Source of the DNA: Ilumatobacteraceae bacterium
Lineage (GTDB): Bacteria; Actinomycetota; Acidimicrobiia; Acidimicrobiales; Ilumatobacteraceae
Length of the DNA: 64,000 nt
Assembly (NCBI GenBank): GCA_035557475.1
Contig: DATMDV010000370.1
Span: 2,336-66,335, forward strand
Direction: 5' to 3'
Under the pieces are notes generated by a model. That model ran no database searches, had not been told where the DNA came from, and saw only the letters and a program-made list of their open reading frames with translations. The position numbers and the translations under genes are program-made. Positions 35,852-54,625 of the stretch are shown here, piece by piece; the first letter of the stretch is position 1; each line of letters begins with the position of its first letter.

Positions 35852-37011
35852 CGCGGATGCGGGTGATGCACGTCGTCGATTCGCTCGCCGCGTCCGGTGG
35901 CGCCGAACAGCGACTGGTCGAGGAGGCCGAGGCGATCGCCGACCGCTTCGATCAGCGCGTCGTGCGGCTGTACGGGCGCGACGAGCTGCAGCCCCGGCTC
36001 GAGCAGGCGGGCATCCCGGTCATCGCCCTCGGGATGACCGGCCGTCACGCCGGCCGCACCTGGCCCGTGGCGGTGTTGCGGTTGCGTCGGGCGTTGCGCG
36101 AGTGGCGCCCCGACGTCATCCACACGACACTCTTCTCGGCCAACCTCACCGGCCAGCTGGCGGCGCGGACGCTCGGGATCCCGGTCGTGTCGTCGTTCAA
36201 CCGGACCGGTGACATCACCCTCCAACGAACGCTGCAACCAGGTGTGGCCGGCTGGCGCGGGCGTTCGATGCAGGCCATCGCCGGCCGCGCCGCACGGTGT
36301 GGTGACGTGCACTTCCGGGCCGTCAGCGCGTACGCCCGCGACAGCAACTGCGAGCTGTTCGACGTACCGCTCGAGCGGGTCACCGTCGTCCCCCGGGGCA
36401 TCTCGGTCGGCGGCGCACCAGCGGCGGACCGCGCGGCGTTCGGGATCGCCGACGGAATCCCGCTGTTCGTCAACGTCGCTCGGCTCGTACCGGAGAAGGC
36501 GCAGCACCTGCTCGTCGACGCGTTCGCCGAAGTCCGCGACACGCTGCCCGATGCCGAGCTGGCGATCGCCGGCGCGTCGGGTTCGGCGGAACCGACGGTT
36601 CGGGCCGCGATCGCCCGCCACGGTCTCGACGGCGCCGTTCACCTGCTCGGCTGGCGCGACGACGTCCGCTCGCTCGTCGCCGTCGCCGACGTGTTCGTGT
36701 TCAGCTCGCTGTCGGAAGGGTCGCCGAGCGCGGTGCTCGAGGCGATGGTGATCGGAACGCCCGTCGTCGCGTTCGCCATCGCCCCCGTCGTCGAGCTCAC
36801 CGGCGGTCACGCCCGACTGGCGCCCACCGGTGCGCCGGGACTGCTCGCCCACGAGATGCTGGCGGCGTACAACGCTCCTGAACGGACGACCGAGATCGCG
36901 GGCGCGCAGGCGTGGGCCGCGCGGTTCGCGCTGAGCGACGTCGCCCGCCAGCTCGGCGACCTGCTCGAATGGCGAGCCGGTCGTCGGGCGGAACCCGTGC
37001 GGGCGGCATGA
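35848..37011 (+). CDS. GT4 glycosyltransferase
   Basis: MRVMHVVDSLAASGGAEQ N-terminus; VFSSLSEGSPSAVLEAMVIGTPVVA (EX7E). GTGA overlap upstream. Confidence 0.85.
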   Translation: MTRMRVMHVVDSLAASGGAEQRLVEEAEAIADRFDQRVVRLYGRDELQPRLEQAGIPVIALGMTGRHAGRTWPVAVLRLRRALREWRPDVIHTTLFSANLTGQLAARTLGIPVVSSFNRTGDITLQRTLQPGVAGWRGRSMQAIAGRAARCGDVHFRAVSAYARDSNCELFDVPLERVTVVPRGISVGGAPAADRAAFGIADGIPLFVNVARLVPEKAQHLLVDAFAEVRDTLPDAELAIAGASGSAEPTVRAAIARHGLDGAVHLLGWRDDVRSLVAVADVFVFSSLSEGSPSAVLEAMVIGTPVVAFAIAPVVELTGGHARLAPTGAPGLLAHEMLAAYNAPERTTEIAGAQAWAARFALSDVARQLGDLLEWRAGRRAEPVRAA

Positions 37012-37979
37012 GCGTGGCGTCGTCGTTGTTGGAGCGAGGTGTGGCCGTGGTGTCCATCGACACCGAGCTGGCGTGGGGCGAGTCGCACCACCGCGACGGC
37101 ACCGGGCCGCGACGCGACTACTCCTCGGAGCGCGGGGTCATCGACCAGATCCTCGCCGTGTTCGATCGCTACGACATCTCGGCGACGTGGGCCATCGTCG
37201 GCCACCTGTTCCTCGATCAGTGCGCGGCGGTCGAGGGTCTGCCGCATCCCGAGATCGTGCGCCCGGAATCTCCGTCGTCGGGCGGCGACTGGTTCGACAT
37301 CGACCCCTGCTCGACGCTCTCGGCCGACCCCGCGTACTACGGCCGCGACATCGTGGCCGCGATCCGCAGGAGTCGTGTCCCGCACGAGATCGGCTGTCAT
37401 TCGTTCTCGCACCTGATCGCCGACGGCTGCGGCGAAGCCGCGTTCGGATCCGACCTCGCCGCGTGCCAGGCGGTCGCTGCCGCGGAAGGGCTCGACGTGC
37501 GCTCGTTCGTGTACCCCCGCAACGCAATCGCGCACATCGACATGCTGCGCGGGCACGGATTCATCAGCTACCGCGGGTCGGCGGCGGCGTCGGTCAGCTC
37601 GGCCGGGCGCCTCGTCCGCTACGCCGATCGGCTGCGCCCACTGGCCAGGTCGGCCGTGGTGCCGGCCCTTCACCCGAGCGGCGTGTGGAACGTGCCGCAG
37701 ACCTACCTGTTCGCGCCGGCGACCCGCGCCCGCCACGTGCCGGTCGGGCTGTGGGCGCGACGGCCGATCGCCCGGATGCGCCTCGCGACGCGGGAGCGGT
37801 CGCTGTTCCACCTGTGGTTCCACCCGTACAACGTCACGGCCGCGCCCGACCGCGCGTTGCACGGGTTGGAGGCGATCTGCCGGGCCGCGGCCCGTCTGCG
37901 TGATGCGGGCCGGCTCGACATCCTGACGATGGGCGCCCTGGCTGCCCGCCTCGAGGCTGATCGGCCCGACGCCACCTAG
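37008..37979 (+). CDS. polysaccharide deacetylase (CE4-like)
   Basis: ATGA overlap with the GT4 gene. VVSIDTELAWG, ISATWAIVGHLF, IGCHSFSHL (His motifs of the NodB/CE4 type). Confidence 0.7.
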   Translation: MSVASSLLERGVAVVSIDTELAWGESHHRDGTGPRRDYSSERGVIDQILAVFDRYDISATWAIVGHLFLDQCAAVEGLPHPEIVRPESPSSGGDWFDIDPCSTLSADPAYYGRDIVAAIRRSRVPHEIGCHSFSHLIADGCGEAAFGSDLAACQAVAAAEGLDVRSFVYPRNAIAHIDMLRGHGFISYRGSAAASVSSAGRLVRYADRLRPLARSAVVPALHPSGVWNVPQTYLFAPATRARHVPVGLWARRPIARMRLATRERSLFHLWFHPYNVTAAPDRALHGLEAICRAAARLRDAGRLDILTMGALAARLEADRPDAT

Positions 37980-38001
37980 CGGCCCTGAGGCCGGGGCGGT
38001 G

Positions 38002-38964
38002 TCACCCGCGGTCGAAGACGCGACCGACTCGGCGCCGCACCCGGTGGACCTGCCACCGGCACCAACGGGCGGCGACATCGCGCCGGACCGACGCCGACGG
38101 GCGCCGTTCTTGTCGCTCGTAGCCGTGCTCCTCCAACGCCTCGCCGGCGAGCAGCTCGAAACGAGCCACGTCGACGGCGCTCAGCTCGCGCCGCCAGTCG
38201 CGCATGCCCGGCGTCGGCGGCAACGCGAGTTGACGGTGGTACTCGGGGTGACCCGTCGTGCGCATCACCTCGGCGGCGCGGTCCGAATGATCGAGCATGG
38301 CCGCCGAGAACGGCAGCTCGATGGTCGAGCACATGGCGCGCAGCTGGGTGCCGGGATCCCGCACGAGGTCCTCGTAGCGCAGTTCGAGGTAGCGACCGGC
38401 GGGCAACGCTCGTCCGGCGCGCCGGCCGCGGGTGACGCGGAGTCGCCAGTGCATCGCCGCTTCCTCGATCGAGTCGGCCCAGCCGAGCTCGAGGAACGAG
38501 CACGCCACGTCGCGCCCGTCGCGGACCAGGTGGACGAACACCGCTTCCGGGAACACTCGCGCCAGCTCGCGGATGTGGAGCACGTACACCGGCGTCTTGT
38601 CGGCGTAGCGCGACTTGCCCCGGGCCGACGCCCAGAGCCCGAAGACGTGGCGCACGGCCTGCGGGTAGTCCTGAGGCGGCGACGCCGCGAACGCGGCGGC
38701 GATGACGTCGCGCTCGATCTCCCACAGACGGAACCGCTCGCTTGCCGCGAGTTGGTCGACGAAGGCGCCGGCGTCGAATGGCCGGTTCGCAGCCCGCCCG
38801 CGCGGCGCCAGCTGGACGACGAAGTGCGATTCGGGCGGGACGGCGAGGTCGGGATGACCGTCGCACATCGCGCGCAGCAGCGTGCTGCCGGACCGGCCGC
38901 ACCCGACGATGAACGGGAACGGCGGCCGAGCCGTCGGACCCAGAGCCTCGGACCCCGGCATCAT
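38002..38964 (-). CDS. sulfotransferase, family A, paralog 2
   Basis: PPFPFIVGCGRSGSTLLRAMCDGHPDLAVP; FVHLVRDGRDVACS. Basic tail ...ARWCRWQVHRVRRRVGRVFDRG. Confidence 0.8.
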   Translation of the reverse strand: MMPGSEALGPTARPPFPFIVGCGRSGSTLLRAMCDGHPDLAVPPESHFVVQLAPRGRAANRPFDAGAFVDQLAASERFRLWEIERDVIAAAFAASPPQDYPQAVRHVFGLWASARGKSRYADKTPVYVLHIRELARVFPEAVFVHLVRDGRDVACSFLELGWADSIEEAAMHWRLRVTRGRRAGRALPAGRYLELRYEDLVRDPGTQLRAMCSTIELPFSAAMLDHSDRAAEVMRTTGHPEYHRQLALPPTPGMRDWRRELSAVDVARFELLAGEALEEHGYERQERRPSASVRRDVAARWCRWQVHRVRRRVGRVFDRG

Positions 38965-38977
38965 CAGACCGAAACCA

Positions 38978-40492
38978 TCAAACGAGATACTTGCGCAGGA
39001 TCTTGCCGAGCGGGCTGCGGGGGATCTCGTCGCGGAACTCGACGATGCGCGGCACCTTGAACGCGGCCAACTGCGCCTTGCATGCCGCCAGCAGGTCGCG
39101 GCGAAGAGGTGACTCGTCGGCTTCGGGGTCGTCGCGGACCACCACCGCCTTCACGATCTCCTCGCCGCGGTCGCCCTGCGCGCCGACGACGACGACGTCG
39201 GCGACACCCGGCTGGGCGCGGATGACCGCCTCGACCTCGAACGGGTCGACCTTGAAGCCGCTTGTCGAGATGAACAATTTCGTGCGGCCGGTCACGAACA
39301 GGTTCCCGGCGTCATCGAGGCGGCCGAGGTCGCCGGTGCGGAACCAACCGCCGTCGAACATCTCGTTCGCCGACTCGCCCTCCGCCACGTATCCCGCCGT
39401 GAGGGCATCGCTGCGGAACGTGATCTCTCCCGTCGCACCGCGGGCGTGGCAGACACCGTCGTCGTCGATGACCGCGACGTCGATGCCGCTCATCGGCCGG
39501 CCGACCGAATCCCAGCTGCCCGTCGCATCGTCGTCGAGGTTGATCGTCACCGATCCGGCCTCACTGCATCCGTAGAGCTGCCTGATCGGATGGCCGAAGC
39601 GGTCGTGGAACAGGTCGAACGTCGCCTGCGAGAGCGGCGCGCCGGCCGAGAAGCACAGCCGCAACGTCTGCAGGTCGGCACGCTGGGCGCGCCGGGTCTC
39701 GGCGAGGCTGTGGAAGATGAACGGCACGGCCGGGAACAGTGTGACCCGCTCCTGCTTGATCGCCGCCAGCGTCGCGTCGCGTTCGAACCGGCCGAGCACC
39801 AGCGGAGCTCCGGAATGGATCGCGGCGAGCAACGCGTTGCCCAGGCCGTGGGCGTGGAACAGCGCGACGACGGCGAGGATGACGTCGTCCTCGGTGACGT
39901 CGACGGTCGCCGCGAACTGGTCGGCCTCGGCCGCCAGGTTGCGGTTCGTGCGGATCATGCCCTTGGGCGTGCCGGTGGATCCCGACGAGAACGCGAACAG
40001 CGCCGGCGCGGCGGGGTCGACGGTGACGTCGTGGAATGCCGCGGTGTGTGACGTGGCGTTATCGAACGAGGCGAAGTCCTCGACCCACGGATGGCGCCGA
40101 CCCGGGGCCGTGTACGGCCGATCGCGGAGCACCGGCACGAGATCGGGCTCGGCGACGATCCCGACGACGTCGCAGCCGGCGACCTCGCAGCCGGCCAGGT
40201 GACGGCCGAGCTCCTCGGGCGTGAACAGCGGGTTGAGCGGCACCGCCATCGCGCCGAGCAGCTCGACGGCGAGGAACGTCGTGACGAAGGCGCGGTCGTT
40301 GCCGAGCACGATGGCGACGCCGCTGCCGGGCGTGATGCCGCGAGCCTGCAGCGAGCCCGCCAACTGACGGGCGTCACCGGCGAGCTCATCCCAGGTGCGG
40401 CGCTCGGATCCGTCGACCAGCGCCAGGCGATCGCCGACCCGATCGACCGTCGACGAGAACATCGCCGCCACGGTCGACGGGCGCCCCCTCAC
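38978..40492 (-). CDS. AMP-forming acyl-CoA/acyl-ACP ligase (ANL superfamily)
   Basis: AMP-binding motif FSSGSTGTPKGM, plus YGCSEAG, FRTGDLG and the C-terminal PRSPLGKILRK. Confidence 0.85.
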   Translation of the reverse strand: MRGRPSTVAAMFSSTVDRVGDRLALVDGSERRTWDELAGDARQLAGSLQARGITPGSGVAIVLGNDRAFVTTFLAVELLGAMAVPLNPLFTPEELGRHLAGCEVAGCDVVGIVAEPDLVPVLRDRPYTAPGRRHPWVEDFASFDNATSHTAAFHDVTVDPAAPALFAFSSGSTGTPKGMIRTNRNLAAEADQFAATVDVTEDDVILAVVALFHAHGLGNALLAAIHSGAPLVLGRFERDATLAAIKQERVTLFPAVPFIFHSLAETRRAQRADLQTLRLCFSAGAPLSQATFDLFHDRFGHPIRQLYGCSEAGSVTINLDDDATGSWDSVGRPMSGIDVAVIDDDGVCHARGATGEITFRSDALTAGYVAEGESANEMFDGGWFRTGDLGRLDDAGNLFVTGRTKLFISTSGFKVDPFEVEAVIRAQPGVADVVVVGAQGDRGEEIVKAVVVRDDPEADESPLRRDLLAACKAQLAAFKVPRIVEFRDEIPRSPLGKILRKYLV

Positions 40493-40746
40493 GATGCGCG
40501 CCGCCCGGCGATGTAGCTGCTCATCGATCCGAGGCTGCCGAAGTTCTCGATCGTGATCTCGCGATCGGGCACGTCGATGCCGAACGCCTCCTCGATGCCG
40601 ATCACGACGCTGAGCAGCGCTGCCGAGTCGAGACCGAGGTCGAGGAGCGACGCTCCCTCGTCGACCCTCACACCGGCGTCGAGCTGGAGTCGCTCGGCAA
40701 GGAGCGCCCGCAGCCGGTCGTCGATGTCAGCATGCTCACCGTCCAC
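40489..40746 (-). CDS. acyl carrier protein
   Basis: 85 aa. LLDLGLDSAALLSVVIGIEEAFGI contains the phosphopantetheine-attachment Ser in a DS motif. 4-nt overlap with the ligase gene. Confidence 0.8.
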   Translation of the reverse strand: MDGEHADIDDRLRALLAERLQLDAGVRVDEGASLLDLGLDSAALLSVVIGIEEAFGIDVPDREITIENFGSLGSMSSYIAGRRAS

Positions 40747-40910
40747 GTCCGCCCCTCCGCGATCGATCCTACGCCGAGCCGAGCATCGATGCGGTTTGGG
40801 TCGAGATTCTCCGCGTGGGGCGCGGAAGTCCTCGACGCAAGCGGCGTGGGGCAGACTCGCGGCAGCCCGGTAGCGCTGGGACGGGCGCTTTCGATCAGGC
40901 TGTCGGCGCC

Positions 40911-41765
40911 ATGACGATGCTCGACGCAGTGCGGACCCGGGTCCCGATGGACGTCCGGCATCGCATCGCGCAATTGCGGGTGCGGGCGCGGGTTCCGACC
41001 GGCAGATGGCGACGCCTGCCTGACCTGCTGGTGATCGGCGGCCAACGGTGCGGGACGAGCACGCTGTACCGCCACCTCGGACGGCACCCCGACGTCGCGC
41101 CGTCGCTGCGCAAGGAGGTCGAGTACTTCAGCCGTCGGTACGACCGCGGCGAGCGCTGGTATCGGGCCCATTTCGCGCTCGAAGCGCAACGTCACCGGCT
41201 GTGCTTCGAGGCGACGCCCGACTACCTGTTCCATCCGCTGGCCGCGGCGCGGGCGGCCACCGTCGTGCCCGAGGCGCGGCTCGTCGTGATGCTCCGCGAT
41301 CCGGTCGTCAGGGCGTGGTCGCACTATCACCACATGGTGGGGCTCGGTCACGAGGACCTCGAGTTCGACGCCGCCGTCGAGGCCGAGCAGGGCCGCAGTG
41401 CCGGCGATCTCGCCCGGCTGGCCGACGACCCGTTGCACGACCCGGTCGCGCTGCTGCGGTACTCGTACGTGGCGCGCGGCCGCTACGCCGAGCAGCTTTC
41501 GCGATGGTTCGAGCAGTTCCCCCGCGAACAGCTGCTCGTCGTGCGCAGCGAGGACCTCTTCGCCGATCCGCGAGCCTCGTTCCGCCGGATCCTCGACTTC
41601 GCCGGGCTGCCGCCGTGGGAGCCCGACACCTTCACCAACGTCAGCCGGCCGAGCGGTGAGCGGCCGCCGCCCATCCCATCCGCCTCCCGCGACCGCCTGA
41701 CGGAAATGTTCGAGCTCCCGAACCTCGAGCTCGCCAAGCTGCTCGGCGAAACCCCGAGCTCGTGA
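40911..41765 (+). CDS. sulfotransferase, family B, paralog 1 (heparan-sulfate sulfotransferase-like)
   Basis: LLVIGGQRCGTSTLYRHLGRHPDV, KEVEYFSRRYDRGERWYRAHF, VVMLRDPVVRAWSHY. This pattern resembles animal HS N-/3-O-sulfotransferase domains. Confidence 0.8.
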   Translation: MTMLDAVRTRVPMDVRHRIAQLRVRARVPTGRWRRLPDLLVIGGQRCGTSTLYRHLGRHPDVAPSLRKEVEYFSRRYDRGERWYRAHFALEAQRHRLCFEATPDYLFHPLAAARAATVVPEARLVVMLRDPVVRAWSHYHHMVGLGHEDLEFDAAVEAEQGRSAGDLARLADDPLHDPVALLRYSYVARGRYAEQLSRWFEQFPREQLLVVRSEDLFADPRASFRRILDFAGLPPWEPDTFTNVSRPSGERPPPIPSASRDRLTEMFELPNLELAKLLGETPSS

Positions 41766-41799
41766 AGTTTCGGTGTCCCTAGGACGCCGAAACTTCACG
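41761..41799. terminator. long perfect hairpin between convergent genes (bidirectional terminator candidate)
   Basis: CGTGAAGTTTCGG (41761-41773) pairs with CCGAAACTTCACG (41787-41799). An inner GTCC-CTA-GGAC extends the stem. The TGA of the upstream gene lies inside the 5' arm. Confidence 0.65.
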
Positions 41800-41810: not shown

Positions 41811-43952
41811 TCAGGTGTCGGTGGAGACCGCGTTCCATTCGGGGCGGGGGTCGCCCTGCTGGTCGCCGGGGCGGACGGTGTAGGTGGTGGTCCCGTTGAT
41901 GACGCGCAGAACGGTCTCCTCCGCCACGTCGTCGACCAGCCAGAACTCGTTGCCGGCGAACGTGCAGTTGACGAAGTCGTACAGCTGCGGATGGTCGCCG
42001 CCGTCCGGCAGCCCGATCTGGGCCACCGTGCCGCCCTGGAACGTCGAGTCGGAGATCTCGGTGACCCGTCCACCTCGGGCGAGGTGTTTCGTCACGTGCA
42101 CCGCGAAGTCGGACAGACCGGCCTGGTCGACGTACATGCGGGTGTAGGTGATCGTCTCGTCGGAGGCCTGGCCCGCCTTCGCCGGAAGGGCCGAGATCAC
42201 CACCCCGACGTTCTCGCAGGCATAGACGGTGCAGTCGTGGTACGAGACGAGGTTGGCGTACGAGCCGGCGAAGATGCCCTGACCGCAGTGATAGGCCGTG
42301 AACCCGTCGACGAGCGTGCGCGGCTTGCCGTTCTGCCAGAAGTAGATGCCGCTGTGGCGGACGTTGTGGGCCATGTTGCCCTCGAACGCCCACGTGTTGT
42401 CATCGCGCGACAGCGACGGCCAGTTGTAGCCCGCCGACGACTCCGCGCCACCCTCCACGCCGGTCGCCACGCATCCCCTGGCGATGTTGCCGTCGCCGGC
42501 GCCCATCATGAACCCGCAGAGGTTGAACTTGCTGTTGCCACCACTCTTCACGAAGCTGGCGACGCACCGCTCGTAGACGATGTTGTGCGACGGAACCAGG
42601 TCGCGTCCGCCGCCGTCGAGGCTGAGGTCCCACCAGAACGCGTCGTCGACCATGTCGTGGGCGATGCAGTCGCGGAACGTGACGCCGTTGGACAGGTGCG
42701 ACGCGAACCCGTGACCCGTCGAGTCGTACACGGAGACACCGTCGAGGAGCGATCCGCGCGAGCCGTCGTAGCCGGCATGGAAGTGGATCGCGTACCGGCC
42801 GAGGACCTCGTCCTCGCCCTTTCTCGGGCCCATGTTGCGCAGCCCGATGTGAGAGATCTGCTGCGCCGTGGTCGTCGACAGCATGATGAGGTGCGCCTTG
42901 CCACCTGGTGTCCCACCGATGACGACGTTGCGGCTGATGTTGAGGACCTCGGCCCGGTGGGTGACGCCGGGACGGACCGTCGCGGCCGGGTGGGGGAAGT
43001 CGAGTGGACGGTCGAGGCCGATCCGCGCGCCGGAGACGGACGTGACCGTGCGACGATCGTGATGCTCCCAGTGGTTGTCGACGGTGGTCGATTCGGTCGG
43101 GGTGATCACGACCTCGTCGCCGACCCGCCAGCCGGCGGCCGCGTCGACATCGATCGTCGAGTCGCCCTTGTTCGCCGCCCCGCTCAGGTTGGTCCACGCG
43201 GTCTTGGGCGTGCCATGGGCGTCGAGCACGCCGGCGGCGACCACCCACAGCCCGACGTCCGTGGCGAGCGGCTCAGCCGAGTGACCGCCGACGAAGCGAC
43301 TTTCGTCGACCTCGATGAACTCGATCTGGTGGAGGATCTGCGCCGAGGACGGGCGCAGCGTCAACTGCCCGGCCACCACCACGTTGCCTCGCGAAGCGAG
43401 CTTCCGACTGCTGGCCGGGTCGAACGTCAGCGAACCGTTTGGTCCGATGTGCACGCCGCCGACCGTGGCGTCGATGTCGAGCAACACGGGCCGGTCGATC
43501 ATCGCCGTGTCCGTCGCGCCGGGGACGCTGCCGCCCCAGGTCGCCGGGTCGCTCCAGTTCACGGCCGTCGGGTCGCCACCCGGCGGTGGTGTCGTCGTCT
43601 CGACCGGAACCGTGGTTTCGGTCCCTTCGTGGTGCCCAGTCGTCGTCGTGGCAGGGGCAGTCGTCGTGGTCGCCGTCGGCTGGGTCGTCGACGGCTGGGT
43701 CGTCGTGGTCTTGTCCGGCTTGCGGTCGCGCTCGCGTTCCTCTTTCGGAGGCTTGGTGTTGTCGGGTTCGTTCGCTCCCGACCGGCGCCCGGACCGGCCC
43801 GCCCCGGACTCCGCGTCGTCGCCGATCGTTCGCGTCACCTGCCACCCCAGCAGGGCGAGGCCACCGAAGCCGGCGATCGCGATCACCTCGCGGCGCGGGT
43901 AGGACCGCTTCGTCGGCTCACGGTCGTCGGGAACGGGGGGCGTCTCTGCCAT
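41811..43952 (-). CDS. membrane-anchored G8-domain / right-handed beta-helix protein (CEMIP/TMEM2-like candidate polysaccharide depolymerase or modifier)
   Basis: - N-terminal TM anchor: VIAIAGFGGLALLGW.
- Thr/Pro-rich linker: TTTTQPSTTQPTATTTTAPATTTT.
- G8-like segment: VNWSDPATWGGSVPGATDTAMIDRPVLLDIDATVGGVHIGPNGSLTF.
- LGRYAIHFH motif.
- Multiple beta-helix-like repeats. Confidence 0.65.
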   Translation of the reverse strand: MAETPPVPDDREPTKRSYPRREVIAIAGFGGLALLGWQVTRTIGDDAESGAGRSGRRSGANEPDNTKPPKEERERDRKPDKTTTTQPSTTQPTATTTTAPATTTTGHHEGTETTVPVETTTPPPGGDPTAVNWSDPATWGGSVPGATDTAMIDRPVLLDIDATVGGVHIGPNGSLTFDPASSRKLASRGNVVVAGQLTLRPSSAQILHQIEFIEVDESRFVGGHSAEPLATDVGLWVVAAGVLDAHGTPKTAWTNLSGAANKGDSTIDVDAAAGWRVGDEVVITPTESTTVDNHWEHHDRRTVTSVSGARIGLDRPLDFPHPAATVRPGVTHRAEVLNISRNVVIGGTPGGKAHLIMLSTTTAQQISHIGLRNMGPRKGEDEVLGRYAIHFHAGYDGSRGSLLDGVSVYDSTGHGFASHLSNGVTFRDCIAHDMVDDAFWWDLSLDGGGRDLVPSHNIVYERCVASFVKSGGNSKFNLCGFMMGAGDGNIARGCVATGVEGGAESSAGYNWPSLSRDDNTWAFEGNMAHNVRHSGIYFWQNGKPRTLVDGFTAYHCGQGIFAGSYANLVSYHDCTVYACENVGVVISALPAKAGQASDETITYTRMYVDQAGLSDFAVHVTKHLARGGRVTEISDSTFQGGTVAQIGLPDGGDHPQLYDFVNCTFAGNEFWLVDDVAEETVLRVINGTTTYTVRPGDQQGDPRPEWNAVSTDT

Positions 43953-48037: not shown

Positions 48038-48039
48038 GT

Positions 48040-48063
48040 CGCGTCTGATTGAGTCGGCTCACT
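48040..48063. repeat. copy 2 of the 24-nt motif CG(T/C)GTCTGATTGAGTC(A/G)GCTCACT
   Basis: See 16848-16871. This copy fills the 21-nt gap between convergent stops and includes the TGA of the GT4 gene. Confidence 0.6.
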
Positions 48064-49264
48064 CCACGCTGCGTCGCTGACCGGCTGGTCGCCGACTGTG
48101 GCGCCACCAGCGGCGGCGCGTCGCGGCACGGCGATAGGTGTCGAGCACCGTCTCGACGATGCGGCGTTCGTCGAAGTTGGCCCGCGCCCTGGCGACGGCG
48201 GCGACGCCCATCGCCACCCGGCGCGCCTCGTCCTCACCGAGGGCATGGATGGCCGCGGCGAGGGCGATCGGCGCCCGCAGCGGCACGAGGATCCCGGTCA
48301 CGCCGTCGTCGACGACCTGACGGCACCCGCGGATGTCGGTCGCCACGGTCGCCAGCCCCGATGACGCCGCCTCCATCGCCGCCCGTGGGAAGCCCTCGCG
48401 ATGCGAGGGCAACACGAACACGTCCATGCCTCGGTACAGCAGGTCGATGTCGTCGCGCAGCCCGAGGAACCGGACGCCCGCATCCGTTCCCACCTGCACC
48501 TGCTCGGTCGTGAGGGCGTCCGGCTTGTCGGGATCGTGGGGCCCGATCACGACCACGAGGTACCGGTCGCCGAGGGCCCTGGCGGCCTCGATCAGCTCGA
48601 GGTGTCCCTTCTCGGCGACGAGCCGTCCGACGGTGCCGACCACCACCTGGTCGGGAGCGGCCCCGAGCTCGGCGCGCGCCCTCGCCCGCTCGCCGGCGTC
48701 GATCGCCGGACGGAAGCGCTCGAGCGCGACGCCGTTGCCGAGCAGGAACGTGCGCCGCGGCGAGTTCAACCGCCACCGCACGAGGAGCGCGAGATCCTCG
48801 GGGTTCTGGATGAGCTCGGCGTCGGAGAAACGGGCGGCGATGCCCTCGAGGGCGAGCACGACGGCCCGCCGTACCCGCTGACCGTCGCCGATGTAGAGAC
48901 CGTGGTTCGTGTTCACCACCACTGGTACCCCGGCGAGCCGGGCGACGACACGGCCATACACGCCCGGCTTCGGGTTGTGGGTGTGGACGACGTCGAAGTG
49001 CTCCGACCGCAGGATTCGCCACAGATCGAACGCGGCCCGCAGGTCGGCGCCCACGTCCCACCCACGTGTCGACGATGTCAGAGCGATGTGACGGACGCCG
49101 TCGCGTTCGAGCGCCTCGACCCAGGGTCCCGGGGCGCTGATCCCGACGACCTCACCGCCCTCGTGGAGCACGGCCAGCAGTTGCGGGCGCAGGAGGTACC
49201 ACAATGTCGAGTCGACGGTGGTGACGTGGGCGACCCGGATCGGGGCCGCGGGCGCAACGCTCAC
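48059..49264 (-). CDS. GT4 glycosyltransferase
   Basis: The GTG start overlaps the ATP-grasp stop (GTGA). IRVAHVTTVDSTLWYLL N-terminus; VLPSHREGFPRAAMEAASSGLATVAT (EX7E). Confidence 0.85.
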   Translation of the reverse strand: MSVAPAAPIRVAHVTTVDSTLWYLLRPQLLAVLHEGGEVVGISAPGPWVEALERDGVRHIALTSSTRGWDVGADLRAAFDLWRILRSEHFDVVHTHNPKPGVYGRVVARLAGVPVVVNTNHGLYIGDGQRVRRAVVLALEGIAARFSDAELIQNPEDLALLVRWRLNSPRRTFLLGNGVALERFRPAIDAGERARARAELGAAPDQVVVGTVGRLVAEKGHLELIEAARALGDRYLVVVIGPHDPDKPDALTTEQVQVGTDAGVRFLGLRDDIDLLYRGMDVFVLPSHREGFPRAAMEAASSGLATVATDIRGCRQVVDDGVTGILVPLRAPIALAAAIHALGEDEARRVAMGVAAVARARANFDERRIVETVLDTYRRAATRRRWWRHSRRPAGQRRSVE

Positions 49265-50244
49265 GTCGTGGCCCGGTCGTCGGCTACGAAGACGGCCGCG
49301 TCGTAGCGCAGCATCACGACGCCGGCGCGCCATCCGTCGGCGCTGGCCGTCGACGGGAGGCCGACCAGGTCCTCGAGGATCCAGCGCGGGAAGTCCGCCC
49401 CCGCCTCGCGCGACAGCGGGAATCCCCCGCCGAAGCGGGCGTTGAGCTCGATGATCGCCAGCTGGTCGGTTCGGTCGTCGACGAACACCTGGATCGTGAG
49501 CGCGCCGAACGGATCGGGCAGCGCGTCGCACACCTCCACCGCCAGCTGCTCGAGCGACGCCGAGCGAACCGTCACTGCCTTGGCCACCTCGCCGGCACGC
49601 ACCTCGAGGCGCCGTCGGGGAACGGCGCAGACGCGCGCACCAGCCCGATCGACGAGGACGTCGATCGTGTACTCAGTGCCGGCCGCAACCGTCTCGACGA
49701 CGACGTCGCCGACTCGCGCCGCGACCTCGAGCTCCGTCGTGTCGCTGACGATGGTCACCCCATGGGCGGCACTGCCGAATCGCGGCTTGACCACGAGCGG
49801 GAACGGCCATGCGTCCGGATCGTCGCGGACGCTCGCCAACGTCGTCTGGCGGACGGTTGGAAGATCGTTCGCCACGAGCCACTCGTGGGTCGCCACCTTG
49901 TCGGCCGCGATGGCGACGACGGCGGGCGCCGACACTGCCACGGTCGTCCCGACGGCAGCCAGCTCGGAGCTGGCGGCCGCCAACACCGGCAGCTCGGGAT
50001 CGATCGTCGGCACGACGAGGTCGACCTGTTGGTCGACGCACAGCTCTACCATGCGCGGGACGAACGCTCGGTCCGTGCACGCCGGCACCTCGAAGCCGGC
50101 GTCGGCGCTGTGCCGCGCGCTGGAGTACCACGACCGGTCGGTGGCGATGACCCGACCGTTGAGGTCGAGGTCGTGCAACGCCTCGCGGAAGCTCCGCAAC
50201 AGCTCGACGCGCCGCCCGGCCGACGACACCAAGACGGTGGTCAT
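49261..50244 (-). CDS. ATP-grasp domain enzyme (carboxylate-amine ligase type)
   Basis: MTTVLVSSAGRRVELLRSF, PLVVKPRFGSAAHGV, IIELNARFGGGFP. ATGA overlap with the sugar transferase gene. Confidence 0.75.
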   Translation of the reverse strand: MTTVLVSSAGRRVELLRSFREALHDLDLNGRVIATDRSWYSSARHSADAGFEVPACTDRAFVPRMVELCVDQQVDLVVPTIDPELPVLAAASSELAAVGTTVAVSAPAVVAIAADKVATHEWLVANDLPTVRQTTLASVRDDPDAWPFPLVVKPRFGSAAHGVTIVSDTTELEVAARVGDVVVETVAAGTEYTIDVLVDRAGARVCAVPRRRLEVRAGEVAKAVTVRSASLEQLAVEVCDALPDPFGALTIQVFVDDRTDQLAIIELNARFGGGFPLSREAGADFPRWILEDLVGLPSTASADGWRAGVVMLRYDAAVFVADDRATT

Positions 50245-50909
50245 TCGCGCCGGGCGGGGAGCTGGGTCATGGTTGCGTGACCTGCTCCCGAGATCCCGCT
50301 GCGCCGCACGACCACCGGGACCGTCCTGGCGAGGATCCGTGCGTCGAGGGCGAGCGAGCGGTGGTCGACGTACCACGCATCGAGCTCGAGCCGGGCGTCC
50401 CACCCGATCGCGTTGCGGCCGTTGATCTGTGCCCAGCCGGTGATGCCGGGGCGGACGGCCAGCCGCCGGCGCTGACGATCGGTGTACCGCTCGACGTAGC
50501 GGACCGGCAGCGGTCGTGGCCCCACGACGGCCATGTCGCCGCGGACGACGTTGACGAGTGAAGGGAGCTCGTCGATGCTCGTCGACCGCAGGAACCGACC
50601 GAGCGGCGTGATGCGGGCGCCGTCGTGGTCGGGGGCCGTCTCTCCCGCACGTAGCGGGCGCATCGTGCGCAGCTTGAGCAGCTCGAAGGGCTCACCATCG
50701 CGACCCGCGCGGGCGTGCCGGAACAGGACCGGACGGCCCATCTTGACCCTGATCGCGAGCGCCGCCGCAGCGAGCACCGGTGCGGCAAACGCGAGGGCGG
50801 CCAAGGCGATCACCACGTCGAGTAGGCGCCGAACCGCGCGGCTCGTTCGTCCCTCGATTCGCCCGTTCGTGCGCCCGGCCCCCGACGACTGAACCTTCCA
50901 GCCCGCCAC
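50241..50909 (-). CDS. small polyprenyl-phosphate sugar-1-phosphate transferase (PglC/WbaP-C type, bacterial sugar transferase family)
   Basis: One N-terminal hairpin helix (VVIALAALAFAAPVLAAAALAI), then GRPVLFRHARAGRDGEPFELLKLRTM, DELPSLVNVVRGDMAVVGPRP and RPGITGWAQINGRN. Confidence 0.85.
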   Translation of the reverse strand: MAGWKVQSSGAGRTNGRIEGRTSRAVRRLLDVVIALAALAFAAPVLAAAALAIRVKMGRPVLFRHARAGRDGEPFELLKLRTMRPLRAGETAPDHDGARITPLGRFLRSTSIDELPSLVNVVRGDMAVVGPRPLPVRYVERYTDRQRRRLAVRPGITGWAQINGRNAIGWDARLELDAWYVDHRSLALDARILARTVPVVVRRSGISGAGHATMTQLPARRE

Positions 50910-50957
50910 GACCGCTCAGTCTTCCGCATCACCGCGCGTTGTGCCAATGTTCCGGTC

Positions 50958-51842
50958 GTGGGCGGACTCCGATCTCGGGTCGCGCGGCGGGCTCGGCGGC
51001 TCCCCGTGCTTCGGCGTTATCCCGTGACGTACATCTCGTCGTGGCTCGACGGGTACCGGCTGCGCGGCGACTTCGACCAGGTTCGCGCGTTCGTGATGTT
51101 CGTCGGCCAACCGCGCACCGGGCACAGCATCGTCGGCGCCCTGCTCGACGCCCATCCGAACACGTTGATCGCCCACGAGCTCGATGCGCTCAAGTACGTC
51201 ACTGCCGGCTACGACCGACGACGCCTGTACGCCCTGCTCGTGCGTGCACAGCAGGAGCGGATCGCCGCCGGCCACATCTCCGCGACCGGCTACCAGTATC
51301 TCGTCGACGGTCAGTGGCAGGGACGGTACGAGCAGCTGCAGGTGATCGGCGACAAGAAGGGCGGTCAGTCGACCGCCCGTCTCGGCGCGGACATCGGCTT
51401 GCTCGACCGTCTGCGCGCGACCGTTGGCGTCGACGTGCACGTCGTCCAGGTCGTGCGCAACCCGTACGACGTCATCGCCACGATGCAGCGCCGGGCGCCG
51501 AATCGCCGGCTGCCCGACGTCGTCGACTTGTTCTTCGACCTCGCCGTCACGGTCGACGAGGTCCGCCGCCGGGTCCCCCCCGAACGGTTCCACGAGCTCC
51601 ACCACGACGCGCTGATCACCGACCCGACGGCCACGCTGAGCAAGCTGTGCACGTTCTTGAGCCTCCCCGCACCCGCCGACTACCTCGCCGCGTGCAGCGC
51701 CATCATCTTCGACACACCGCGTCGCACCCGCGGCGACGTGGCATGGACGCCGGAGCTGATCGAGTGCGTTCGCGCACGCTTGGCCGAGCACCCGTCGCTC
51801 GAGCACTACGGATACGAAGCCACGTCGGCGGAGGCGTCGTGA
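50958..51842 (+). CDS. sulfotransferase, family C, tandem copy 1
   Basis: P-loop FVMFVGQPRTGHSIVGALLDAHPN; VVQVVRNPYDVIATM. Collinear with the next gene along its whole length. Confidence 0.7.
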   Translation: MGGLRSRVARRARRLPVLRRYPVTYISSWLDGYRLRGDFDQVRAFVMFVGQPRTGHSIVGALLDAHPNTLIAHELDALKYVTAGYDRRRLYALLVRAQQERIAAGHISATGYQYLVDGQWQGRYEQLQVIGDKKGGQSTARLGADIGLLDRLRATVGVDVHVVQVVRNPYDVIATMQRRAPNRRLPDVVDLFFDLAVTVDEVRRRVPPERFHELHHDALITDPTATLSKLCTFLSLPAPADYLAACSAIIFDTPRRTRGDVAWTPELIECVRARLAEHPSLEHYGYEATSAEAS

Positions 51843-52714
51843 AGACCAAGCAGGCCCACCGACGCCGCCAGGTGGCGCGCCTCGTCAACGGGGTCCGCGT
51901 GCTCCCCGGCTTCCGCAACTACCCGATGCTCTACGTCAGCTCGGCGGTGCGGGGTCGCCAACTGCGCGCCGACTTCGCCAGCGTGCGCACGTTCTTGCTG
52001 TTCGTCGGGCATCCGCGCAGCGGCCACAGCCTGGTCGGTTCGCTGCTCGACGCTCATCCCGACGCGGTGGTGTCGCACGAGCTCGACGCGCTCAAGTACG
52101 TCGCCGCCGGCTATCGCCGATCGCAGCTGTTCACGCTCGTGCTCGAACACGCCAAGGCCAACGCCGCGGCTGGCCGGAAATCGTGGGGCTACTCGTACGC
52201 CGTGCCCTCCCAATGGCAGGGACGGTACGAGCGGCTCGAAGTGGTGGGCGACAAGCGCGGCCGGCGCACGACCGCCCGCCTTGCCGAACGACCCGAGTTG
52301 CTCGACCGGCTGGCGGCCACGGTGCAGATGCCGGTATCGGTCGTGCAGGTCGTCCGCGACCCGATCGACAACATCTCGACGATGTGGCGACGAGGGCAAC
52401 TCACGCTCGAGTACCAGATCGACGAGTACTTCTCGCTGTGCGACACGGTCGACAAGATCACCGCCGGGATGGATCCGGCGCGCTTTCACCGTGTGCGGCT
52501 CGAGGAGCTCATCGCCCATCCGCACGACCAGCTCACCGACCTGTGTCGGTTCCTCGAGATGCGAGTCGTGCCGGGATACGTCGATGCGTGCGCGTCGATC
52601 GTGTTCGAGGCGCCGCGCCGTACCCGCGACGATGCGCCGTGGACAGCGGAGCTGGTCGACGACGTGCGTCGTCGAGCCGGGCGCCACGAATGGCTGGCGC
52701 CGTACGACGCATGA
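51839..52714 (+). CDS. sulfotransferase, family C, tandem copy 2
   Basis: GTGA overlap. FLLFVGHPRSGHSLVGSLLDAHPD; VVQVVRDPIDNISTM. The track ORF was trimmed from 50780. Confidence 0.7.
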   Translation: MKTKQAHRRRQVARLVNGVRVLPGFRNYPMLYVSSAVRGRQLRADFASVRTFLLFVGHPRSGHSLVGSLLDAHPDAVVSHELDALKYVAAGYRRSQLFTLVLEHAKANAAAGRKSWGYSYAVPSQWQGRYERLEVVGDKRGRRTTARLAERPELLDRLAATVQMPVSVVQVVRDPIDNISTMWRRGQLTLEYQIDEYFSLCDTVDKITAGMDPARFHRVRLEELIAHPHDQLTDLCRFLEMRVVPGYVDACASIVFEAPRRTRDDAPWTAELVDDVRRRAGRHEWLAPYDA

Positions 52715-52727
52715 CGGGCGGCGGACG

Positions 52728-53789
52728 GTGAGGCTGAAGTCGCGGGTCAAACGGCTGCTGCGCTCCGCCGGGTTGCGCCGGCGGCGGTCGCCGTGGGTGG
52801 TGCACGAGGATCAGCCGGCTGGCCCGGACCCGCTCGACTCGTGGGCGTTGTACGCGATCGTGGTGACTTGGATGGAGGCCGACGTGATCGCGGCCACCGT
52901 CCGCAACGCCCTGACGCAGGGATGCGAGAGGGTGATCCTGGTCGACAACGACAGCCCCGACGACACCGTGGCGGCGGCCATCGCCGCTGGGGCCGAGCTG
53001 GGGACGTCGTTCTCGACCCCTCAGCTCGACGAGATGCTGAAGATCCGCCTGCTCAACGAGACGGTCGCACGGGTGTCGGACGAATCACCCCACGACCACA
53101 TCTGGTGGCTGTGGCTCGACGCCGACGAGTTCGTCCACGGTCCCGGCGGTTCGACCGTCGCCGAGATGCTGACGACCTTGGACCGTCGCTTCCGCATCGT
53201 CGGCACCCGGTACTTCAACCACTTCCCCGATCGCCGCCCCGAGCACCTCGTGGGGCTCCACCCGCTCGACTTCCAGGCGGCGTGCGAGGAACGATCGGGC
53301 GACCTCTGCGACCTCGGCCATCGCAAGCACAGCCTCCAACGCTGGGATCGCCACGGACCGCCGATCACGTCGGGGCTCGGGTTCCACGCTGCCCGCGCCG
53401 ACGTCACGCTCGTCGAGCCGACGCTCGCCACGTTCACGCACCACTTCCCCTACCGGTTGGAGGCGGCCACGCGGCAGCGGTTCGATGCGCTCTGTGGCCG
53501 TGACGGCAACGGACGGTCACGCGTCGATCCCTACGACCGCCAGGTGCGGCGCAACGCCCGCACCGACTCCGACATGTCGAAGCGTTACCGGACGCTCGAG
53601 CACGTCTACGCGCGCGAATGGGCGAGGATCGAGAACCTGCGCCGCGCCGGGAACACGCTCGGGGTCGTGCTGCGCCCGTGGTGCGACGCGGTCGACCCGG
53701 CGGATGCGCAGTTCGCGAGGTGGTACTCGCCGACCGAGCTCGAGGCCGCGATCGCCGAGTGGGCGCTCACGGGCGGCGCGCCCCCGTGA
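52728..53789 (+). CDS. GT-A fold glycosyltransferase (GT2-like)
   Basis: YAIVVTWMEADVI, VILVDNDSPDDT, WLWLDADEF (DxD). The GTG 52728 start is uncertain. Confidence 0.65.
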   Translation: MRLKSRVKRLLRSAGLRRRRSPWVVHEDQPAGPDPLDSWALYAIVVTWMEADVIAATVRNALTQGCERVILVDNDSPDDTVAAAIAAGAELGTSFSTPQLDEMLKIRLLNETVARVSDESPHDHIWWLWLDADEFVHGPGGSTVAEMLTTLDRRFRIVGTRYFNHFPDRRPEHLVGLHPLDFQAACEERSGDLCDLGHRKHSLQRWDRHGPPITSGLGFHAARADVTLVEPTLATFTHHFPYRLEAATRQRFDALCGRDGNGRSRVDPYDRQVRRNARTDSDMSKRYRTLEHVYAREWARIENLRRAGNTLGVVLRPWCDAVDPADAQFARWYSPTELEAAIAEWALTGGAPP

Positions 53790-54625
53790 CGCCGCCGCCT
53801 TCCACACCGGCCGGGTTGCTGCCGAACTTCGTCGTGATCGGAGCGATGCGCTCCGGGTCGACGTCGTTGTACAAGTACCTGCAGGCCCACCCCGACGTCT
53901 TCATGCCGCGCAAGGAGATCCACTTCTTCGACGTCAAGTGGGACCGCGGTGTGGCGTGGTACCACACTCGCTTCGAGGGATACGCCGGGCAGACGGCGAT
54001 CGGGGAGGCGACGCCGACCTATCTCGCCGATCCCGTCGCGCTCGACCGCATGGCGGGCACGATTCCAGACACGCGGCTGGTAGCCGTGTTGCGTGATCCG
54101 GTCGACCGCGCCTACTCGCACTACTGGATGGAACACGCCCGCCAACGTGATCCGCGGACGTTCGAGGCTGCCATTGCCGACGAGCTCGCAAGACGGCCGG
54201 GTGCACCCCCATCCGACTACCTCGACCGCGGTCGCTACGCGCGGCAGCTCGAGCAGGTGTGCGAGCGGTTCCCACGGCACCACCTGCACGTCGTGCTCCT
54301 CGACGACCTCCGCGACCGGCCCCACGAGACCTACGCCGCGGCGTGCCGGTTCCTCGGGATCGACGACGGGTTCGTGCCGCCTCGGATCGGCGAGCGGGTC
54401 AACCGGTTCGTGGCGTTCCGATCGATGCGGGTGCGGAACATGCGCCGCTCACTTCCGTCGACGTTGCGGATCGCGCGGATCGTCGGCCGGCTCAACGCTC
54501 GCGAGGGCGCCTACTCGCCGATGGCAGCCGAAACGCGGGCGACATTGCACCAGCATTTCGGCGCCGACAACGAGGCGCTGGCCGAGTGGCTCGGACGCGA
54601 TCTGTCGATGTGGGGTGCCCGATGA
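53786..54625 (+). CDS. sulfotransferase, family B, paralog 2 (heparan-sulfate sulfotransferase-like)
   Basis: GTGA overlap. FVVIGAMRSGSTSLYKYLQAHPDVFMPRKEIHFFD, VAVLRDPVDRAYSHYWM. Confidence 0.8.
   Translation: MTPPPSTPAGLLPNFVVIGAMRSGSTSLYKYLQAHPDVFMPRKEIHFFDVKWDRGVAWYHTRFEGYAGQTAIGEATPTYLADPVALDRMAGTIPDTRLVAVLRDPVDRAYSHYWMEHARQRDPRTFEAAIADELARRPGAPPSDYLDRGRYARQLEQVCERFPRHHLHVVLLDDLRDRPHETYAAACRFLGIDDGFVPPRIGERVNRFVAFRSMRVRNMRRSLPSTLRIARIVGRLNAREGAYSPMAAETRATLHQHFGADNEALAEWLGRDLSMWGAR

Follow-up and report, generated by a model that had tools for sequence, protein, structure and literature searches.

We analyzed a 64,000-nucleotide stretch of DNA (hereafter, the window; contig DATMDV010000370.1 of assembly GCA_035557475.1) from an uncultured Ilumatobacteraceae bacterium of the class Acidimicrobiia, in which an earlier note had suspected a two-step, heparan sulfate (HS)-like modification of an amino-sugar polymer by separate CE4 deacetylases and sulfotransferases. 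Roughly 40 kb of the window (~17.8–56.9 kb) is taken up by one glycan-biosynthesis locus of the ABC-transporter-dependent type. It contains eight sulfotransferases, CysD/CysN, genes for an N-acetylhexosamine (HexNAc)-uronate and for a 4-amino sugar, an acyl carrier protein (ACP)/AMP-ligase module, several GT4 and one GT2 glycosyltransferase, and a protein with multiple transmembrane (TM) segments. As the G+C content of the window is ~70%, most long open reading frames (ORFs) are shadows; genes were therefore called from third-position GC (GC3 frame analysis) and each was checked against Pfam and NCBIfam, with start codons being approximate for several genes. The resulting 49 predicted proteins formed the set scanned against Pfam, and GC3 frames support the reading frames of the two deacetylases (CE4-1, CE4-2) and the two family B sulfotransferases (ST-B1, ST-B2) at the following coordinates, given together with their immediate neighbors:

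35848–37011, + strand: GT4 glycosyltransferase upstream of CE4-1 (Pfam GT4 domains)
37008–37979, + strand: CE4-1, a cytoplasmic CE4-fold deacetylase of the HpPgdA/3rxz-like subfamily (PF01522, AlphaFold2 [AF2] model, Foldseek)
40911–41765, + strand: ST-B1, a sulfotransferase of the HS 3-O-sulfotransferase/N-sulfotransferase (3-OST/NST) clade (PF00685, PF13469; motifs G-x-Q-R-x-G-T-S and R-K-E-V-E-Y-F-S)
44125–45120, − strand: GNAT (Acetyltransf_9) N-acetyltransferase (Pfam)
46124–47146, − strand: conserved protein of 340 aa with a DxD motif (LALDTDT) and YYNSGV (motifs read from the sequence)
47201–48037, + strand: CE4-2, a cytoplasmic PgaB/IcaB-like N-deacetylase (PF01522, matches in the Protein Data Bank [PDB])
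48059–49264, − strand: GT4 glycosyltransferase adjoining CE4-2, start approximate (Pfam; fusion proteins)
53786–54625, + strand: ST-B2, an HS-clade sulfotransferase with the 3-OST-type motif K-E-I-H-F-F-D (PF00685, PF13469)

Both genes that the earlier note had read as CE4 deacetylases do encode such enzymes, as judged by Pfam PF01522, fold or PDB matches, and conserved residues. CE4-2 matched PF01522 at 72 bits (E 5e-20; cut-off, 23.1), and its closest PDB entries are IcaB and PgaB, with BpsB also among the nearest. Its first motif (T94-F-D96-D97-G) aligns with the TFDDG of IcaB/PgaB and is kept in 98–100% of 45 homologues, as are the second motif (H158-T-D-T-H162, i.e., H158-x3-H162), the PgaB/IcaB-type acid histidine of the permuted His motif (Y35-H36), as well as Y197-P198, R238, and D245. 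We take H36 to be the equivalent of PgaB H55. CE4-1 passed the Pfam cut-off only narrowly (26.3 vs 23.1 bits; E 8e-6), and a sequence search against the PDB returned chance matches only, so we used a fold search instead. The AF2 model, derived from 30 homologues (pLDDT 86), adopts the CE4 barrel—the (beta/alpha)7 NodB fold—and its best Foldseek match was the polysaccharide deacetylase 3rxz of Mycobacterium smegmatis (E 2e-9; TM-score 0.62/0.69), followed by Helicobacter pylori HpPgdA (3qbu) and dozens of CE4 esterases and deacetylases. D18, E20, H131, H135, R171, H268, and H272 are invariant among these 30 homologues. The HSFSH motif corresponds to H131-S-F-S-H135, and S-I-D-T-E (comprising D18 and E20) stands where CE4 enzymes have TFDD; either acidic residue may be the metal ligand. 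The catalytic and metal-binding residues, whose loss had been named beforehand as a ground for giving up the proposal, are thus intact in CE4-2 (at least 98% of 45 homologues), and their putative counterparts are kept in CE4-1 (all 30 homologues). Both CE4s also weakly match HfsH, a cytoplasmic oligosaccharide deacetylase.

Each deacetylase has a GT4 at its side. The ATG of CE4-1 overlaps the stop codon of the upstream GT4 as ATGA, coupling the two translationally, and the same GT4–CE4-1 pairing recurred in all related loci observed, namely L001, L002, and those of the window type described below. Orthologues of the GT4 adjoining CE4-2 are elsewhere fused to, or abut, CE4-2. On the other side of CE4-2, the 340-aa protein is likewise conserved beside it in the window-type clade; neither this protein nor the one encoded at 24969–26357 had a Pfam match, even at E 5, and from its motifs the former is probably a GT8-like glycosyltransferase of the GT-A fold. 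The GNAT travels with CE4-2 and PglF in related loci.

The family B sulfotransferases likewise belong where the earlier note had placed them, among enzymes of the HS N-/3-O-type, by sequence for both proteins and by fold for ST-B1. In phmmer searches against the PDB, ST-B1 and ST-B2 matched HS 3-OST-3A (E 1e-22 and 2e-21, respectively), NDST1, an HS N-deacetylase/N-sulfotransferase (NDST; E 3e-18 and 1e-12), and the bacterial protein 3rnl (E 2e-20 and 1e-28). A family B profile scored 3rnl at 151 bits, 3-OST-3A at 145, 3-OST-1 at 130, NDST1 at 125, and 3-OST-5 at 122. When the ST-B1 model (AF2; pLDDT 94) was submitted to Foldseek, the top 21 matches were all HS 3-OSTs, NDST1, or 3rnl (TMq 0.65–0.72), with the NDST1 entry 8ccy at 0.72, 3-OST-3 at 0.70, and the next fold, CurM, at 0.46. 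Close relatives of the two proteins—by sequence, and by fold for ST-B1—are confined to animal HS 3-OSTs, the sulfotransferase domain of NDST1, and 3rnl. R129 and S137 of the 3′-phosphate-binding (3′-PB) motif are invariant among 43 ST-B1 homologues, and the 5′-phosphosulfate-binding (PSB) loop G-x-Q-R-x-G-T-S (R46), with an arginine in place of the usual lysine, and the catalytic glutamate E69 are kept in at least 90% of them.

The structural comparison with NDST and 3-OST domains that the earlier note had called for placed ST-B1 in the HS clade by fold and did not discriminate N- from O-sulfation: neither profile score nor TM-score (0.67–0.72 for 3-OSTs and NDST1 alike) separates N- from O-sulfotransferases within this clade, and ST-B1 is, by sequence and model, equidistant from N- and 3-O-sulfotransferases. 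Around the catalytic glutamate, R-K-E69-V-E-Y-F-S of ST-B1 aligned with A-E-P-H-F-F-D in 3-OST-3A, E-E-I-Q-F-F-N in NDST1, and K-E-A-H-F-F-S in 3rnl. Nearly all of 80 relatives share the ST-B1 version (R-K-E-[VIT]-E-Y-F-[ST]), which is neither the 3-OST nor the NDST pattern. ST-B2 conforms to the 3-OST pattern E-x-H-F-F-D, in which the roles of Glu, His, and Asp are known from work on 3-OST-1 and 3-OST-3, and the NDST motif E-x-Q-F-F-N was absent from the alignments of both ST-B1 and ST-B2. The ST-B2 gene overlaps the preceding GT2 gene as GTGA, which couples the two, and cysDN follows shortly after it.

CE4-1, CE4-2, and all sulfotransferases of the locus lack predicted TM segments and signal peptides. 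Deacetylation and sulfation are therefore cytoplasmic, which fits both the use of 3′-phosphoadenosine 5′-phosphosulfate (PAPS)—a cytoplasmic compound—and export of the completed chain through Wzm/Wzt.

To place this arrangement in context, we turned to related genomes. CE4-1 gave 672 and ST-B1 1650 homologue matches, almost all from metagenome-assembled genomes (MAGs) of Acidimicrobiia, Ilumatobacteraceae, and Jiangellaceae; an exact-match look-up of the window ST-B1 gave no entry. A scan of the ST-B alignment at one genome per species yielded 80 loci, onto whose six-frame ORFs the window proteins were mapped; 45 of them extend at least 9 kb on both sides (full-flank loci). Three patterns emerged. 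The nearest related locus, from an Ilumatobacteraceae MAG (86% identity), is syntenic with the window, and this window-type clade has the order hydr2, hydr1, GT4, CE4-1, family A sulfotransferase, AMP-ligase, ACP, ST-B1, beta-helix protein, GNAT, family A sulfotransferase, the 340-aa protein, CE4-2, GT4, ATP-grasp ligase, phosphoglycosyltransferase, and two further family A sulfotransferases. In a more distant group (ST-B 45–52% identical), CE4-2 follows directly 3′ of ST-B on the same strand; where a full-flank locus reaches far enough upstream, the order is compact, with PglF, a 631-aa protein, ST-B1, CE4-2, and GT4. A third set of ST-B loci has no CE4 within 10 kb. The ~631-aa protein between PglF and ST-B (8069–9964 in L005/L021, and equivalents elsewhere) is conserved and had no Pfam match.

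A CE4-2 homologue was present in 27 of the 45 full-flank loci and directly downstream of ST-B in 15. Across all 80 loci, ST-B directly adjoins CE4-2 in 22; in at least nine of these a start codon is available that shares 4 nt with the ST-B stop, and the CE4-2 stop abuts GT4. A GT4 lies within ~4 kb downstream in 17 of the 22, mostly abutting CE4-2. Such conserved adjacency genuinely supports the view that ST-B1 and CE4-2 are functionally linked. Deacetylase modules also occur on their own: one locus (L002) carries a CE4-1 homologue (58% identity) with GT4, GNAT, and CE4-2 and has no sulfotransferase within 10 kb, and among four contexts seeded with CE4-2, three keep the CE4-2–GT4 order (the fourth having no annotated neighbor of that kind), none has ST-B next door, and the sole sulfotransferase nearby is a sulfotransferase–methyltransferase fusion ~7 kb away in one of them.

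Fusion proteins point the same way. No ORF joining a sulfotransferase to a CE4 was found in 85 loci scanned, and a chimeric ST-B1 plus CE4-2 query against a set of 5.8 billion proteins retrieved no fusion (coverage at most 56%), which is weak evidence given that only 8000 word-sharing candidates were scored. CE4-2 is, however, found fused to GT4: P0274 (643 aa) is a clean GT4–CE4 protein, and P0253, P0323, and P0328, which align to CE4-2 plus the GT4 at 48059–49264, are CE4–GT4 proteins with frameshift-like stretches. Several long-contig MAG assemblies used for context (L003, L087–L089) contain genes broken into pieces, probably by frameshifts, which can produce false fusions or absences. Taken together, the GT4–CE4 pairs, their fusions, the ATGA overlap, and the sulfotransferase-free modules argue that a GT4 is the constant partner of each CE4, and that only some lineages have ST-B as an addition. 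Among the relatives there is also a protein with two ST-B units in tandem (P0250, 562 aa). Gene identities, intact catalytic residues, cytoplasmic location, and genomic coupling make up the established part of this analysis; for the substrates, the order of the steps, and the position of the sulfate, we infer a pathway as follows.

On balance, we consider it probable, if far from certain, that the locus directs the cytoplasmic assembly of a heteropolysaccharide, heavily sulfated and in part N-deacetylated, for export by Wzm/Wzt, with the CE4s working as partners of the GT4s and ST-B1 acting on or beside the deacetylated residue. The polymer would be either a cell-wall-linked glycopolymer or an exopolysaccharide (EPS). 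A PglC-like phosphotransferase would start the chain on polyprenyl phosphate, to be extended by GT4, GT2, and GT8-like transferases from building blocks that would include a HexNAc-uronic acid, made by the TviC-like epimerase and the dehydrogenase, and a 4-amino-4,6-dideoxy-HexNAc, made by the PglF-like dehydratase, DegT, and GNAT. In each GT4/CE4 pair, the GT4 would add a HexNAc and the CE4 would remove its N-acetyl group, so that the lipid-linked chain would carry a hexosamine with a free amine. The chain may then be decorated by the eight sulfotransferases, which depend on PAPS and fall into three families, with CysD/CysN supplying activated sulfate. ST-B1 would be an HS-type carbohydrate sulfotransferase working on or beside the residue that CE4-2 and its GT4 provide, and it probably decorates the free-amine residue itself.

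By analogy, the chemistry of ST-B1 is most likely an O-sulfation for which the free amine is either required or tolerated: its best PDB match is 3-OST-3A, and this enzyme, according to the account of Liu et al. 1999 given in PMC5856405, sulfates N-unsubstituted glucosamine. The two-step logic of the earlier note, with deacetylase and sulfotransferase as separate proteins, is accordingly plausible and backed by conserved operon structure; its proposed end product fares less well, N-sulfation being less likely than O-sulfation. The free amine could accept the sulfate, be what the enzyme recognizes when it O-sulfates, receive an acyl group from the ACP/AMP-ligase module, or stay free, and GNAT and the ATP-grasp ligase could use it as well. 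The PglF/DegT route possibly provides a second amine, at C4 of the 4-amino-4,6-dideoxy-HexNAc, with no need of a deacetylase.

Several points weigh against this pathway. ST-B1 is not strictly dependent on CE4-2, as 18 of the 45 full-flank ST-B loci lack CE4-2 within 10 kb, and the related loci stem nearly all from Acidimicrobiia and share ancestry, so that the adjacency counts are not independent events. The E-x-E-Y-F-S of ST-B1 fits neither 3-OST nor NDST, and the preference for O-sulfation rests on priors. PAPS supply is assumed: no APS kinase was found in the 64-kb window by Pfam, NCBIfam, or a six-frame P-loop regular expression, though one may be encoded elsewhere in the genome. The organism, moreover, is uncultured, and its polymer is predicted from the genes.

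The same observations can be read in the sense originally proposed, with CE4-2, CE4-1, or both exposing the C2 amine of a HexNAc and ST-B1 N-sulfating it from PAPS, so that two proteins would yield residues resembling N-sulfoglucosamine (GlcNS). In favor of this, ST-B1 directly precedes CE4-2 in a tight operon in 22 species-level genomes (17 with a downstream GT4, at least nine with an available stop/start overlap), and ST-B1 is as near to NDST1 (125 bits; TMq 0.72) as to the 3-OSTs (122–145 bits; TMq 0.70). The second glutamate of its E-x-E, next to the catalytic base, could bind an ammonium group. The deacetylase domain of NDST1 shares its D-D/H-x3-H/His chemistry with CE4 enzymes (PMC10864358), and nitrous-acid assays have reported N-linked sulfate in bacterial EPS (PMC7356697, PMC10483923). 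We nevertheless regard N-sulfation by this pair as unlikely, since no feature of ST-B1 separates N- from O-specificity, E-x-Q-F-F-N is absent, CE4s are found fused to GT4s and never to a sulfotransferase in the loci scanned, CE4-2/GT4 and CE4-1/GNAT/CE4-2 modules occur without any sulfotransferase, and the 18 ST-B loci lacking CE4-2 count here, too. To our knowledge, all characterized bacterial carbohydrate sulfotransferases—NodH, Stf0, and the synechan enzymes—are O-sulfotransferases, which further counts against it.

Somewhat unlikely, in our estimate, is a fate of the freed amine akin to that in Nod factors, in which the ACP/AMP-ligase/hydrolase module would N-acylate it, the GNAT would re-acylate it, or the ATP-grasp ligase would aminoacylate it, with all sulfation O-linked and independent of the deacetylases. 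The Nod pathway joins NodB, a CE4 enzyme, to acyl-ACP-dependent N-acylation, O-sulfation by NodH, and sulfate activation by the CysDN homologues NodPQ; CE4-1 of the window-type clade sits two genes from the AMP-ligase/ACP genes (hydr2, hydr1, GT4, CE4-1, family A sulfotransferase, AMP-ligase, ACP, ST-B1), and the GNAT accompanies CE4-2 in many loci. However, none of the 49 proteins scanned had a Pfam match to NodA (PF02474) or to the NodC family, the loci with ST-B beside CE4-2 keep CE4-2 but show no ACP/AMP module within 10 kb, and a role as 4-N-acetyltransferase in the PglF/DegT nucleotide-sugar route would account for the GNAT equally well or better. This scheme is also compatible with the pathway we prefer, as the two CE4s may have different fates. 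By far the least credible to us is that the CE4s are O-acetyl esterases or act on some other substrate, their proximity to sulfotransferases reflecting shared locus ancestry only. While the CE4 family does include acetylxylan esterases—also among the Foldseek matches of CE4-1—and the adjacency counts do come from related Acidimicrobiia genomes, CE4-2 shares the permuted His motif of its nearest relatives, the poly-N-acetylglucosamine (PNAG) N-deacetylases IcaB and PgaB, no O-acetyltransferase family was matched among the 49 proteins, and the stop/start overlaps with ST-B and GT4 are kept down to ~45% ST-B identity.

Comparison with animal NDSTs reveals likenesses in both halves of the proposed chemistry. 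The NDST1 sulfotransferase domain and 3-OST-1/3/5 have their fold, PAPS-binding motifs, and catalytic glutamate in common with ST-B1 and ST-B2; CE4-2 has the Asp-Asp/His-x3-His/His catalytic logic of the NDST1 deacetylase domain, a (beta/alpha)7 barrel with D319/D320, H389/H393, and H529 that is homologous to Agd3 (PMC10864358); and, as in NDST, deacetylase and sulfotransferase are brought together, here as adjacent and translationally coupled genes in many relatives of the window locus. Unlike in NDST, the window proteins are separate, and the order in the adjacent relatives is sulfotransferase, then deacetylase. The deacetylase is a PgaB/IcaB-like CE4 rather than an Agd3/CE18-like domain, E-x-Q-F-F-N is missing and the PSB-loop lysine is an arginine, and the window enzymes are predicted to act in the cytoplasm on a lipid-linked bacterial glycan, whereas NDST resides in the Golgi. 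The CE4/ST-B pair is not a member of the NDST family.

Bacterial systems offer partial parallels. Like the rhizobial Nod-factor pathway, the locus unites a CE4, an ACP-linked acyl module, PAPS-dependent sulfotransferases, and CysD/CysN-type activation; unlike it, the product is a Wzm/Wzt-exported polymer instead of a chitooligosaccharide, NodA and NodC were not found, the eight sulfotransferases are of other families, and no APS-kinase domain was found. CE4-2 is closest to PgaB/IcaB of PNAG synthesis, the weak match of both CE4s to HfsH recalls the holdfast system, and the pairing of a GT4 with a deacetylase is that of PelF/PelA, with the same add-then-deacetylate logic as in PgaC/PgaB and HfsH. 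PgaB, IcaB, and PelA act outside the cytoplasm, however, while the window CE4s lack a signal peptide, and the products of the PgaB/IcaB, PelA, and HfsH systems are unsulfated. Sulfotransferases within an EPS locus are known from the synechan xss locus of Synechocystis, which makes a sulfated EPS (PMC8205485), and from the proposed wps-1 cluster of Actinoplanes missouriensis, which includes the HS-type sulfotransferase WpsH (PMC13390465). The window locus resembles both in having its sulfotransferases inside an EPS locus, and wps-1 also in the HS-type enzyme of an actinomycete with sulfate-activation genes nearby, but xss and wps-1 are Wzx/Wzy-dependent with one or two sulfotransferases, whereas the window locus is ABC-dependent, has eight sulfotransferases and two CE4s, and belongs to Acidimicrobiia.

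Apart from cyanobacteria, few bacteria are considered to make sulfated polysaccharides (PMC13390465). Nitrous-acid assays have detected N-linked sulfate in the EPS of Pontiella (75–80%) and in granular sludge, the authors calling the enzymes and pathways unknown (PMC7356697, PMC10483923), and active expression of NDST in bacteria is a stated bottleneck of microbial heparin production (PMC13353177). In the library of papers that we searched, none dealt with sulfated glycans in Acidimicrobiia or with N-sulfation in bacteria by a CE4 plus a sulfotransferase. Against this background, the window harbors a bacterial sulfated-glycan locus with an unusually clear, testable three-gene candidate module (ST-B1, CE4-2, GT4)—a compact operon, found across species, in which an HS-type sulfotransferase stands beside an N-deacetylase and a glycosyltransferase. 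This module lends itself to tests of whether bacteria carry out N-sulfation or an O-sulfation that needs the amine. We doubt that this unit of Acidimicrobiia is a bacterial ‘split NDST’ module; were it one, no earlier enzymatic route to N-sulfated amino-sugar polymers would have been identified in prokaryotes, and such modules might account for N-linked sulfate found in environmental EPS. Even with O-linked sulfation only, the locus would represent an unusually rich sulfated-glycan pathway in Gram-positive bacteria. In either case, widespread uncultured Acidimicrobiia of soil and water carry large loci dedicated to sulfation, and a soluble, native bacterial deacetylase/sulfotransferase pair that accepted heparosan-like substrates would be useful in practice.

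Beyond the two family B genes, six further sulfotransferases bring the locus total to eight in three families. These and the sulfate-activation genes are:

32026–33018, − strand: sulfotransferase of family A (Sulfotransfer_3; Pfam, 123 bits)
33015–33818, − strand: sulfotransferase of family C, cytosolic-SULT-like (PF00685, 87 bits)
38002–38964, − strand: sulfotransferase of family A (PF13469, 132 bits)
45117–46127, − strand: sulfotransferase of family A (PF13469, 134 bits)
50958–51842, + strand: sulfotransferase of family A (PF13469, 51 bits)
51839–52714, + strand: sulfotransferase of family A, start approximate (PF13469, 49 bits; GC3 frame)
54684–55592, + strand: CysD, sulfate adenylyltransferase subunit 2 (TIGR02039, 446 bits, above cut-off; Pfam PAPS_reduct)
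55589–56878, + strand: CysN, sulfate adenylyltransferase subunit 1, without an APS-kinase domain (NCBIfam TIGR02034, 567 bits, above cut-off)

The closest solved structures of the protein at 45117–46127 are the tyrosylprotein sulfotransferases TPST1/2 (E 2e-24), and those of the family C enzyme are plant and animal cytosolic SULTs, StaL, and Teg12. The latter gene lies within a 639-aa ORF (33015–34934, − strand) that we considered as an NDST-like protein with a fused deacetylase and rejected: the ORF is a high-GC shadow whose N-terminal 370 residues run antisense to a + strand hydrolase gene, and only the C-terminal 267 aa (33015–33818) are a real SULT-like sulfotransferase. In many Actinomycetota, an APS-kinase domain is fused to CysN; here, the match of CysN to the bifunctional NCBIfam model spans only positions 22–433 of 632.

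The remaining genes of the locus serve nucleotide-sugar synthesis, chain initiation, export, and acyl or polymer modification:

17787–24961, + strand: nucleotide-sugar genes, with a PglF/PseB-like 4,6-dehydratase, a Wzc-like tyrosine kinase, a DegT aminotransferase, an epimerase, and a dehydrogenase (Pfam, NCBIfam)
22713–23660, + strand: TviC-like epimerase (library matches)
23651–24961, + strand: NDP-sugar dehydrogenase, closest to UDP-ManNAc dehydrogenase and TviB (library matches)
28887–30900, + strand: glycan exporter of Wzm (ABC-2 permease) and Wzt (ATPase) (PF01061, PF00005)
34041–34916 and 34892–35851, + strand: two alpha/beta hydrolases, hydr2_PEP- and hydr1_PEP-like (TIGR03101, 62 bits, and TIGR03100, 48 bits; both below cut-off)
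38978–40492, − strand: acyl-AMP/CoA ligase (PF00501, 238 bits)
40489–40746, − strand: ACP (PF00550, 43 bits)
41811–43952, − strand: CEMIP/G8-like beta-helix protein, 713 aa (Pfam)
49261–50403, − strand: ATP-grasp ligase (Pfam/NCBIfam)
50241–50909, − strand: small PglC-like polyprenyl-phosphate glycosylphosphotransferase (Bac_transf)

The HexNAc epimerase and dehydrogenase that the earlier note had located at 22713–24961 were recovered in this annotation as a TviC-like epimerase and an NDP-HexNAc dehydrogenase. Wzm, Wzt, and an initiating phosphoglycosyltransferase (Bac_transf, 50241–50909), the components by which ABC-dependent assembly is recognized, are all present, and the scan of the 49 proteins revealed no Wzx-type flippase; the NCBIfam models closest to the exporter are TagH and galactan Wzt. 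The acyl ligase resembles the exosortase-A-associated ligase TIGR03098 (212 bits, below cut-off) and, together with the ACP gene (38978–40746) and the hydrolases (34041–35851), is reminiscent of the ‘exosortase A system-associated’ cassette (TIGR03098, TIGR03100, TIGR03101; all below cut-offs), with no exosortase match among the 49 window proteins. The beta-helix protein has an N-terminal hydrophobic stretch, IAIAGFGGLALLG, which is below the TM threshold, and a Thr/Pro-rich linker. We read it as a membrane-anchored protein and the only clearly extracellular enzyme of the locus; it is probably a glycanase or a modifier of the polymer, which it may trim.

On the 3′ side, directly after cysN, a 1902-aa protein (56892–62600, − strand) with DUF7379, CHAT protease, and TPR-S domains resembles a conflict or defense system and is followed by an ArsR-type regulator at 62659–63273. 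Upstream of the locus (1475–8213) lie phosphate-scavenging genes, encoding a 1266-aa phosphodiesterase/5′-nucleotidase and PhoX, with a GGDEF cyclase. Speculatively, a sulfated wall polymer or EPS might act as a phosphorus-free anionic substitute, as teichuronic acid does. Between these genes and the locus, a PTPS-like gene, a zinc-dehydrogenase gene, and a GTP cyclohydrolase II/RibD-C fusion (11368–14126) are of the pterin or riboflavin type, and a further GT4, outside the main locus, adjoins them at 10318–11367.

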